From the NCBI GenBank assembly GCA_964016885.1, contig OZ024756.1:41416001-41480000 (forward strand): a stretch of DNA of 64,000 nucleotides. The letters run 5' to 3'. Under the pieces are notes generated by a model, which had not been told where the DNA came from, searched no databases, and saw only the letters and a program-made list of their open reading frames with translations. Numbering within the stretch: position 1 is the first letter of the stretch; every line of letters starts with the position of its first letter. This stretch comes from Eledone cirrhosa (taxonomy: Eukaryota). Shown piece after piece: positions 43,641 to 43,750 of the stretch. A program made the translations under genes and the position numbers.

Positions 43641-43750
43641 CCCGGACTCGAGTTTCTGCCGCACTCATGCAGCAGTAAGTTGCACTGCACCATCTGTCTG
43701 CATATATTATGCAACAATGCACAATCGGCTTATGCGGCTTCATCAGCGGG
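43641..43750 (-). ncRNA. Complete type I hammerhead ribozyme motif with extended stem II and palindromic stem III, in a ~260-bp cassette (43495-43752) flanked by TA repeats
   Basis: Minus strand: CCCG-CTGATGA-a-GCCGCA-(~70 nt)-TGCGGC-a-GAA-ACTCGAGT-C-CGGG; all core nucleotides present, GUC cleavage triplet. Confidence 0.8.

Follow-up and report, generated by a model that had tools for sequence, protein, structure and literature searches.

The window, that is, the whole 64-kb stretch of DNA analysed here, contains on its minus strand (positions 43641-43750) a motif which by its sequence is a genuine type I hammerhead; its cutting is a prediction. The best explanation of the data, held with moderate confidence, is that this hammerhead belongs to a likely non-autonomous Penelope-like repeat and would cut only as a dimer. 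The long arm carried by stem II is the one unusual feature, and its structure is probably under selection. Precedents have been published for the palindromic stem III, for activation as a dimer and for a mismatch next to stem II.

Structure and folding of the hammerhead motif

All parts of the hammerhead lie on the minus strand where the first-pass annotation of the window had placed them. Stem I consists of 4 bp between CCCG (43747-43750) and CGGG (43641-43644), and 89% of its cells are paired in 53 copies of the repeat. It is followed by the catalytic core CUGAUGA (43740-43746), which is identical in the majority sequences of all four subfamilies. Stem II is flanked by one A on each side (43739 and 43657), as had also been noted. 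It contains 7 bp, GCCGCAU (43732-43738) with GUGCGGC (43658-43664), and encloses 67 nt, the whole domain being 81 nt long. The sequence then continues with the GAAA core (43653-43656), the palindromic stem III ACUCGAGU (43646-43653) and the GUC triplet (43645-43647), where the cut is predicted 3' of the C at 43645. At the H position of the triplet, a hand count over the first 100 genomic matches gave C 70, A 18, U 11 and G 1.

Two molecules can pair over the palindrome to give a duplex of 8 bp, or a single molecule can form 2 bp and a tetraloop. The earlier description of stem III as loopless holds for the 8-nt palindrome, but the same residues are equally drawable as a 2-bp stem with a palindromic UCGA loop. 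A 2-bp stem III with a palindromic loop is the usual form of type I hammerheads in animals. The features of this type, CUGANGA, GAAA and NUH around three stems and open at stem I, are all present in the motif, in which stem III requires either the dimer or the 2-bp stem. The G10.1-C11.1 pair is absent; the subfamily of the window copy has A.A in this position and a G-C pair one step out.

A strict descriptor finds a single site within the 64-kb window, which is 43641-43750, and among 200 simulations of the window by a block-wise Markov model only 1 contained a descriptor match. The 3' core with its stem I strand has 1,095 exact occurrences in the genome, compared with 3 for the reversed control. 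With all parts in place, these counts uphold the identification as a hammerhead. No match was obtained across the window at the Rfam gathering score: the Hammerhead_1 model (RF00163) gives the motif 13.9 bits (E 3.8), compared with the gathering score of 34. The model has 45 positions, relative to which the arm is a long insertion. The long arm shows why such ribozymes evade both Rfam and short-loop descriptors.

For the minimal RNA of 110 nt (43641-43750), stems I and II are predicted with p of 0.68-0.98 and stem III with p of about 0.01. The best homodimer of the same RNA given by RNAcofold is a double hammerhead, with an energy of -84.1 kcal/mol versus -72.0 kcal/mol for two monomers, and the intermolecular stem III duplex has -10.7 kcal/mol. 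The intermolecular activation that the annotation expected from the palindrome is therefore supported by prediction, the double hammerhead lying approximately 12 kcal/mol below two monomers. It is predicted in three of the four cofold constructs and lost in one. Folding also predicts a competing hairpin formed by the 3' strand of stem I and the sequence downstream of it (43624-43644, minus strand). Its probability is 0.93 in the window copy, and 0.80, 0.62 and 0.03 in copies L004, L062 and L073, respectively. The region 43600-43760, suggested in the annotation as a transcription construct, contains this hairpin.

Other hammerhead-like sequences and coding remnants are present in the window. 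A textbook minimal hammerhead of the Penelope-like element (PLE) kind, with a 4-bp stem II, an ACGU palindrome and GUU, is located at 16786 (16781-16818, plus strand), and in its paralogue at 56048 (minus strand) a C-to-T change disrupts the palindrome. At 44744 (minus strand) CUGAUGA is followed by sequence resembling the 16786 family, with the GAAA half missing, as if part of the copy had been deleted. Two further hammerhead-like motifs, both degenerate and with a C flanking stem II on either side, occur at 40410 (minus strand) and at about 42968-43010 (plus strand), the latter within an inverted duplication (about 42895-43039). An F-box domain exon (PF12937; 5356-5958, minus strand) and an open frame further downstream (3971-4990, minus strand), for which Pfam gave no match, are probably parts of one F-box gene. 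Positions 53325-55130 (plus strand) hold part of a reverse transcriptase of the LINE type, with zf-RVT, and a tandem minisatellite open in several frames is found at about 61050-62810.

The stem II arm and its conservation

The 128 ribozyme-bearing copies compared include 108 that fall into four clusters; the other 20, in small clusters, were left out. The sister subfamilies came to light through three contig runs of one sample. The clusters consist of 58 young copies (3.4% from their majority sequence, the window copy included), 31 old copies (7.7%), and groups of 15 and 4. Among the four majority sequences 63 of 294 columns vary overall, compared with none of the 18 columns of the core and palindrome, an invariance which is partly built in because some of the loci were fetched by core patterns. 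The triplet in these sequences is GUA, GUU or GUC. Alignment of the genomic paralogues had been proposed in the annotation as a check, and both the core and the fold of the arm prove to be kept. The 10.1/11.1 position has A.A in all 58 young copies and mostly A.C in the older subfamilies, whose C counts are inflated by the search pattern used to fetch the loci. A C.U mismatch in stem II is found in 28 of 94 motif matches (not de-duplicated); this variant has nonetheless been amplified.

In the 81-nt domain (43658-43738, minus strand) the 7-bp stem II closes a three-way junction predicted by folding, and the same junction is predicted for all four subfamily majorities. Hairpin IIa (43706-43725) has 8 bp and a 4-nt loop and is 96.9% paired, with changes on one side only. 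Hairpin IIb (43667-43703) is bulged, and its tip is remodelled between subfamilies. An unpaired junction strand of 6 nt (43726-43731) is the putative tertiary partner of an upstream GGCG, which the window copy lacks. When random mutants with the same number of changes were folded, fold and energy were both kept in 0-13 of 1,000 trials, over six subfamily comparisons that are not independent. In the 53 copies used, of the 96 extracted at that stage, 91.1% of the cells pair. Within stem II an A-U/G-C swap divides these copies (32 versus 18 of 53) and represents a single evolutionary event. Three of five covariation measures lie above all 500 shuffles and two do not (243/500 and 190/500). RNAalifold applied to the 53 raw, decayed copies did not recover the hammerhead fold and returned an unrelated weak structure.

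An inner helix TGCATA..TATGCA, which the annotation had suggested within the arm, is missing from the predicted fold, and the old subfamily alters one of its strands. The further claim that so large a stem II insertion is atypical holds in comparison with the published hammerhead tables consulted. Our literature search found no account of retroelement hammerheads with a branched stem II; Lunse et al. 2017 may list larger stem II variants. Nor did a search for octopus hammerheads give a description of this family, most subscription papers and Repbase/Dfam being outside the literature searched. The arm of 81 nt widens the natural size range of stem II domains.

The longest invariant run in all four subfamilies (copies L004, L062 and L073 are examples) is a block of 33 nt just upstream of stem I. 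A run of this length was obtained in 127 of 10,000 shuffles. The block carries a second palindrome of 8 nt, the GGCG mentioned above and a reversed CCAAT-like word, and it could serve as a promoter, make a second contact in the dimer or pair in a pseudoknot.

The repeat unit and its copies

The hammerhead is part of a repeat with a non-coding unit of 824 nt. Flanks of 60 loci show that a TTA linker of 13 nt connects successive head-to-tail units, which gives a period of 837 nt. A 193-nt query gave 2,695 candidates over the genome (3.0 Gb; presumably that of an octopod, judging by its repeats), the best 40 of them with 97-100% identity. The repeat is thus abundant, with more than 1,000 copies, of which the window copy is just one, and truncated. 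For the 3' ends, 93 of the first 100 of 619 pattern matches were fetched, in 90 loci, 87 of them distinct. The copies stop at one shared 3' site followed by TTATTA/(TA)n, while 5' truncation occurs at graded positions. A fixed tandem junction was found in 11 of the 87 loci and two complete ribozymes in 3 of the 87, spaced by 839-860 nt; the head-to-tail arrangement therefore exists at the level of the family, the window copy being solo. In the tandems L050, L159 and L165 both units carry the identical stem II variant, as expected if one template was copied for more than one round. Other families of short hammerheads, with CUAG and CGCG palindromes and one base on each side of stem II, were also seen in the TA-rich flanks of several loci (L030, L042, L059, L075, L115, L117, L125 and L126).

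The 5' truncation, common 3' end, partial tandems and microsatellite target together constitute the anatomy of retrozymes and PLEs; truncated 5' ends, partial tandems and (TA)n targets are described for Penelope-like elements by Craig et al. (PMC8557442). The Penelope-like context implied in the annotation is supported by these features. Six-frame translation revealed no protein-coding capacity in the unit, and the ORF with RT and GIY-YIG that marks an autonomous PLE is absent from it. The motif is very probably a PLE-type hammerhead within a non-autonomous element, and the repeat is best read as an animal non-LTR retrozyme, likely a passenger of Penelope-type elements. Two other readings of the unit were considered and rejected. 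An open stretch of about 130 codons runs across the ribozyme, but its frame shifts between subfamilies; copies spliced at a GTAAGT near the 5' end of the unit were looked for among 34 distinct 5' starts, and no deletion was seen to begin at this site.

The copy in the window (43497-43753, minus strand) is the 5'-truncated last 257 nt of the unit, 96.9% identical to positions 568-824 of the L023 unit, and is flanked by (TA)n/(TTA)n. Its 3'-terminal region (43497-43535), with a possible hairpin drawn by eye from the subfamily sequences, ends at the common 3' end before TTATTA/(TA)n. The copy breaks off 3 nt above stem I and has a single ribozyme, no tandem partner and no 33-nt upstream block. 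In its own 257-nt context stem I has p = 0.00 and is predicted not to form. The annotation had ranked this motif first among the window's candidates for an active ribozyme. This is not borne out by a copy that is truncated and without a tandem partner, with A.A at 10.1/11.1 and stem I absent from the predicted fold. With one ribozyme, no 33-nt block and a hairpin predicted to block stem I, it is a poor test case and probably a dead end, inactive unless its read-through transcript pairs in trans.

The 5' ends of 95 copies were mapped, after four rearranged rows and one duplicate had been dropped and L200 counted once. Thirteen of these ends are unit starts, mostly from tandem units. None of the 95 begins at the cut site, so that the ends give no cleavage footprint, and the site is intact and read through in 67 of the 95 copies. 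The 30-nt bin around the cut site holds 7 of 73 ends, no more than several other bins. TA-joined 5' ends appeared more frequent near the cut site (41/398, one strand) than in a control within the arm (19/481; Fisher p = 0.0002). However, a footprint of cleavage in vivo was rejected, since the control bin is unusually low (2/59) and the cut-site bin is like many others (8-14%). The ends that cluster at unit positions 681-686 lie on a TATA microhomology, and position 677 has none of the ends. Intact cut sites and copies longer than one unit would follow from cutting, ligation and copying of a circle; an uncut tandem transcript explains both too.

Proposed mechanism and relation to known elements

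The mechanism which we propose follows the model of Cervera and de la Pena (as outlined in PMC4209133 and PMC7229834) and bioRxiv 10.64898/2026.07.22.740005. The rare tandems with two ribozymes would be transcribed, and their two palindromes would pair to give the double hammerhead, from which RNA of unit length is released. A host ligase may then close this RNA into a circle. A Penelope-type RT/endonuclease would use the TTA linker to prime within nicked (TA)n DNA, and the RT would copy the circle for less or more than one round. The arm would be kept by selection on the source elements; most likely it steadies stem II and braces it against stem I. Dimer cutting is moderately likely to occur in the family.

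A vestigial hammerhead, if only in the young subfamily, is possible but rather unlikely. The repeat would then spread by uncut read-through of tandem sources, and the arm would be kept for another role, such as RT binding or RNA stability. This would be consistent with the change of the conserved G10.1-C11.1 to A.C in the older subfamilies and A.A in the young one, with the amplification of the stem II mismatch variant, and with the copy ends, which show no excess at the cut site that 67 of 95 copies read through. Naiads, too, are described as spreading without canonical hammerheads (Craig et al., PMC8557442). However, core and palindrome have remained unchanged over four subfamilies, and the triplet has moved only among its three forms. 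According to PMC7229834, an axolotl hammerhead remains able to cut despite a U.U mismatch at the base of its stem II, and an intact site would also be left by cutting and subsequent ligation.

Another explanation is that the monomer cuts by itself, through the 2-bp stem III with its tetraloop. The junction strand (GCGCC in older subfamilies) would pair with the upstream GGCG in a pseudoknot that braces the ribozyme, and this bracing would be what the arm does. On its own arm each of the two strands is about 7 positions away from the core, and GGCG sits in the 33-nt invariant block (127/10,000 shuffles). A pseudoknot between stems I and II is predicted for about 40% of hammerheads (PMC3088659), and the 2-bp stem III of axolotl gave 22% monomer cleavage (PMC7229834). 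However, the GGCG pairing is of 4 bp (3 bp in the young subfamily) without covariation, stem III has p of about 0.01 in the monomer, and a perfectly kept palindrome would be superfluous there, which makes this explanation improbable. The repeat might also be the pseudo-LTR or 3' UTR of an unsampled autonomous PLE and not a separate non-autonomous family. Its anatomy matches PLE ends, and the search of its own genome scores the best candidates only. Against this, 30 loci picked by the 5' end of the unit either reach their own 3' end or break off, with no RT ORF inside, and in tandems the 3' end rejoins the 5' end directly. This origin is very improbable.

Returning to the dimer-cutting hammerhead of a non-autonomous repeat, a wider and doubtful suggestion is that the arm is a dedicated domain. 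It might act as a pseudoknot brace with the invariant upstream block, or as a handle for the telomerase-related Penelope RT on a protein-free circular template. The downstream hairpin might be an off-switch, and such hammerheads might form a natural long-armed class missed by standard searches. The four subfamilies and the natural two-ribozyme tandems (for example L165 and L079) are material for the still unproven circle model of Penelope-type retrotransposition.

A protein search with the PLE fragment of L035 led to intact ORFs of 830 codons, which belong to an abundant, young Hydra-like Penelope family. This assignment was made by eye against the supplement proteins of PMC8557442, with no Pfam match. 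No DNA is shared by the repeat unit and this intact PLE (one family, 30 loci), and the autonomous partner of the repeat was not found in the comparison with this one family. In this Hydra-like family (L254:1189-3678, minus strand; L231-L260) the 3' UTR contains a possible degenerate long-armed hammerhead (UUGAUGA ... CGAAAC). The Naiad/Hydra/Chlamys supplement of PMC8557442, in which line breaks can hide short terms, gave no match to motifs of the repeat family.

The palindromic stem III and dimer action have already been published (PMC4209133, PMC7229834, PMC3088659), as well as in a review's account of Lunse et al. (PMC6765202). Animal non-LTR retrozymes, as presented in PMC7229834 and bioRxiv 10.64898/2026.07.22.740005, resemble the repeat in having a non-coding unit, one type I hammerhead, head-to-tail copies and a weak palindromic stem III, and have been proposed to be non-autonomous PLE derivatives. 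Their units of 51-972 bp are derived from PLE ends (Li, Clavereau and Pollet 2026, bioRxiv 10.64898/2026.07.22.740005), a range that includes the length of the present unit. In contrast to them, the repeat occurs mostly as solo truncated copies and partial tandems, not as long arrays, has a branched stem II of 81 nt and is known here from genomic copies alone.

The hammerheads of Hydra-clade PLEs tabulated in PMC8557442 (File S2) have, in many entries, a single base on both sides of stem II and a nearly identical stem III, of the ACUC..GAGU kind; they also share with the motif the 4-bp stem I, the (TA)n targets and the position near the 3' end. Their loop 2 has 3-10 nt, the longest in the File S2 table being 35 nt, compared with the 67-nt junction found here. 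The elements themselves differ from the repeat, which lacks an ORF and does not resemble at the DNA level the single Hydra-like family compared. The minimal PLE hammerheads (PMC4209133) are similar in their short stem I, 7-bp stem II, extra base after A9 and palindromic stem III, as well as in the dimer model and the low expected activity. Unlike the minimal hammerheads given there, the motif carries a second extra base, 3' of stem II, and a long, branched loop 2.
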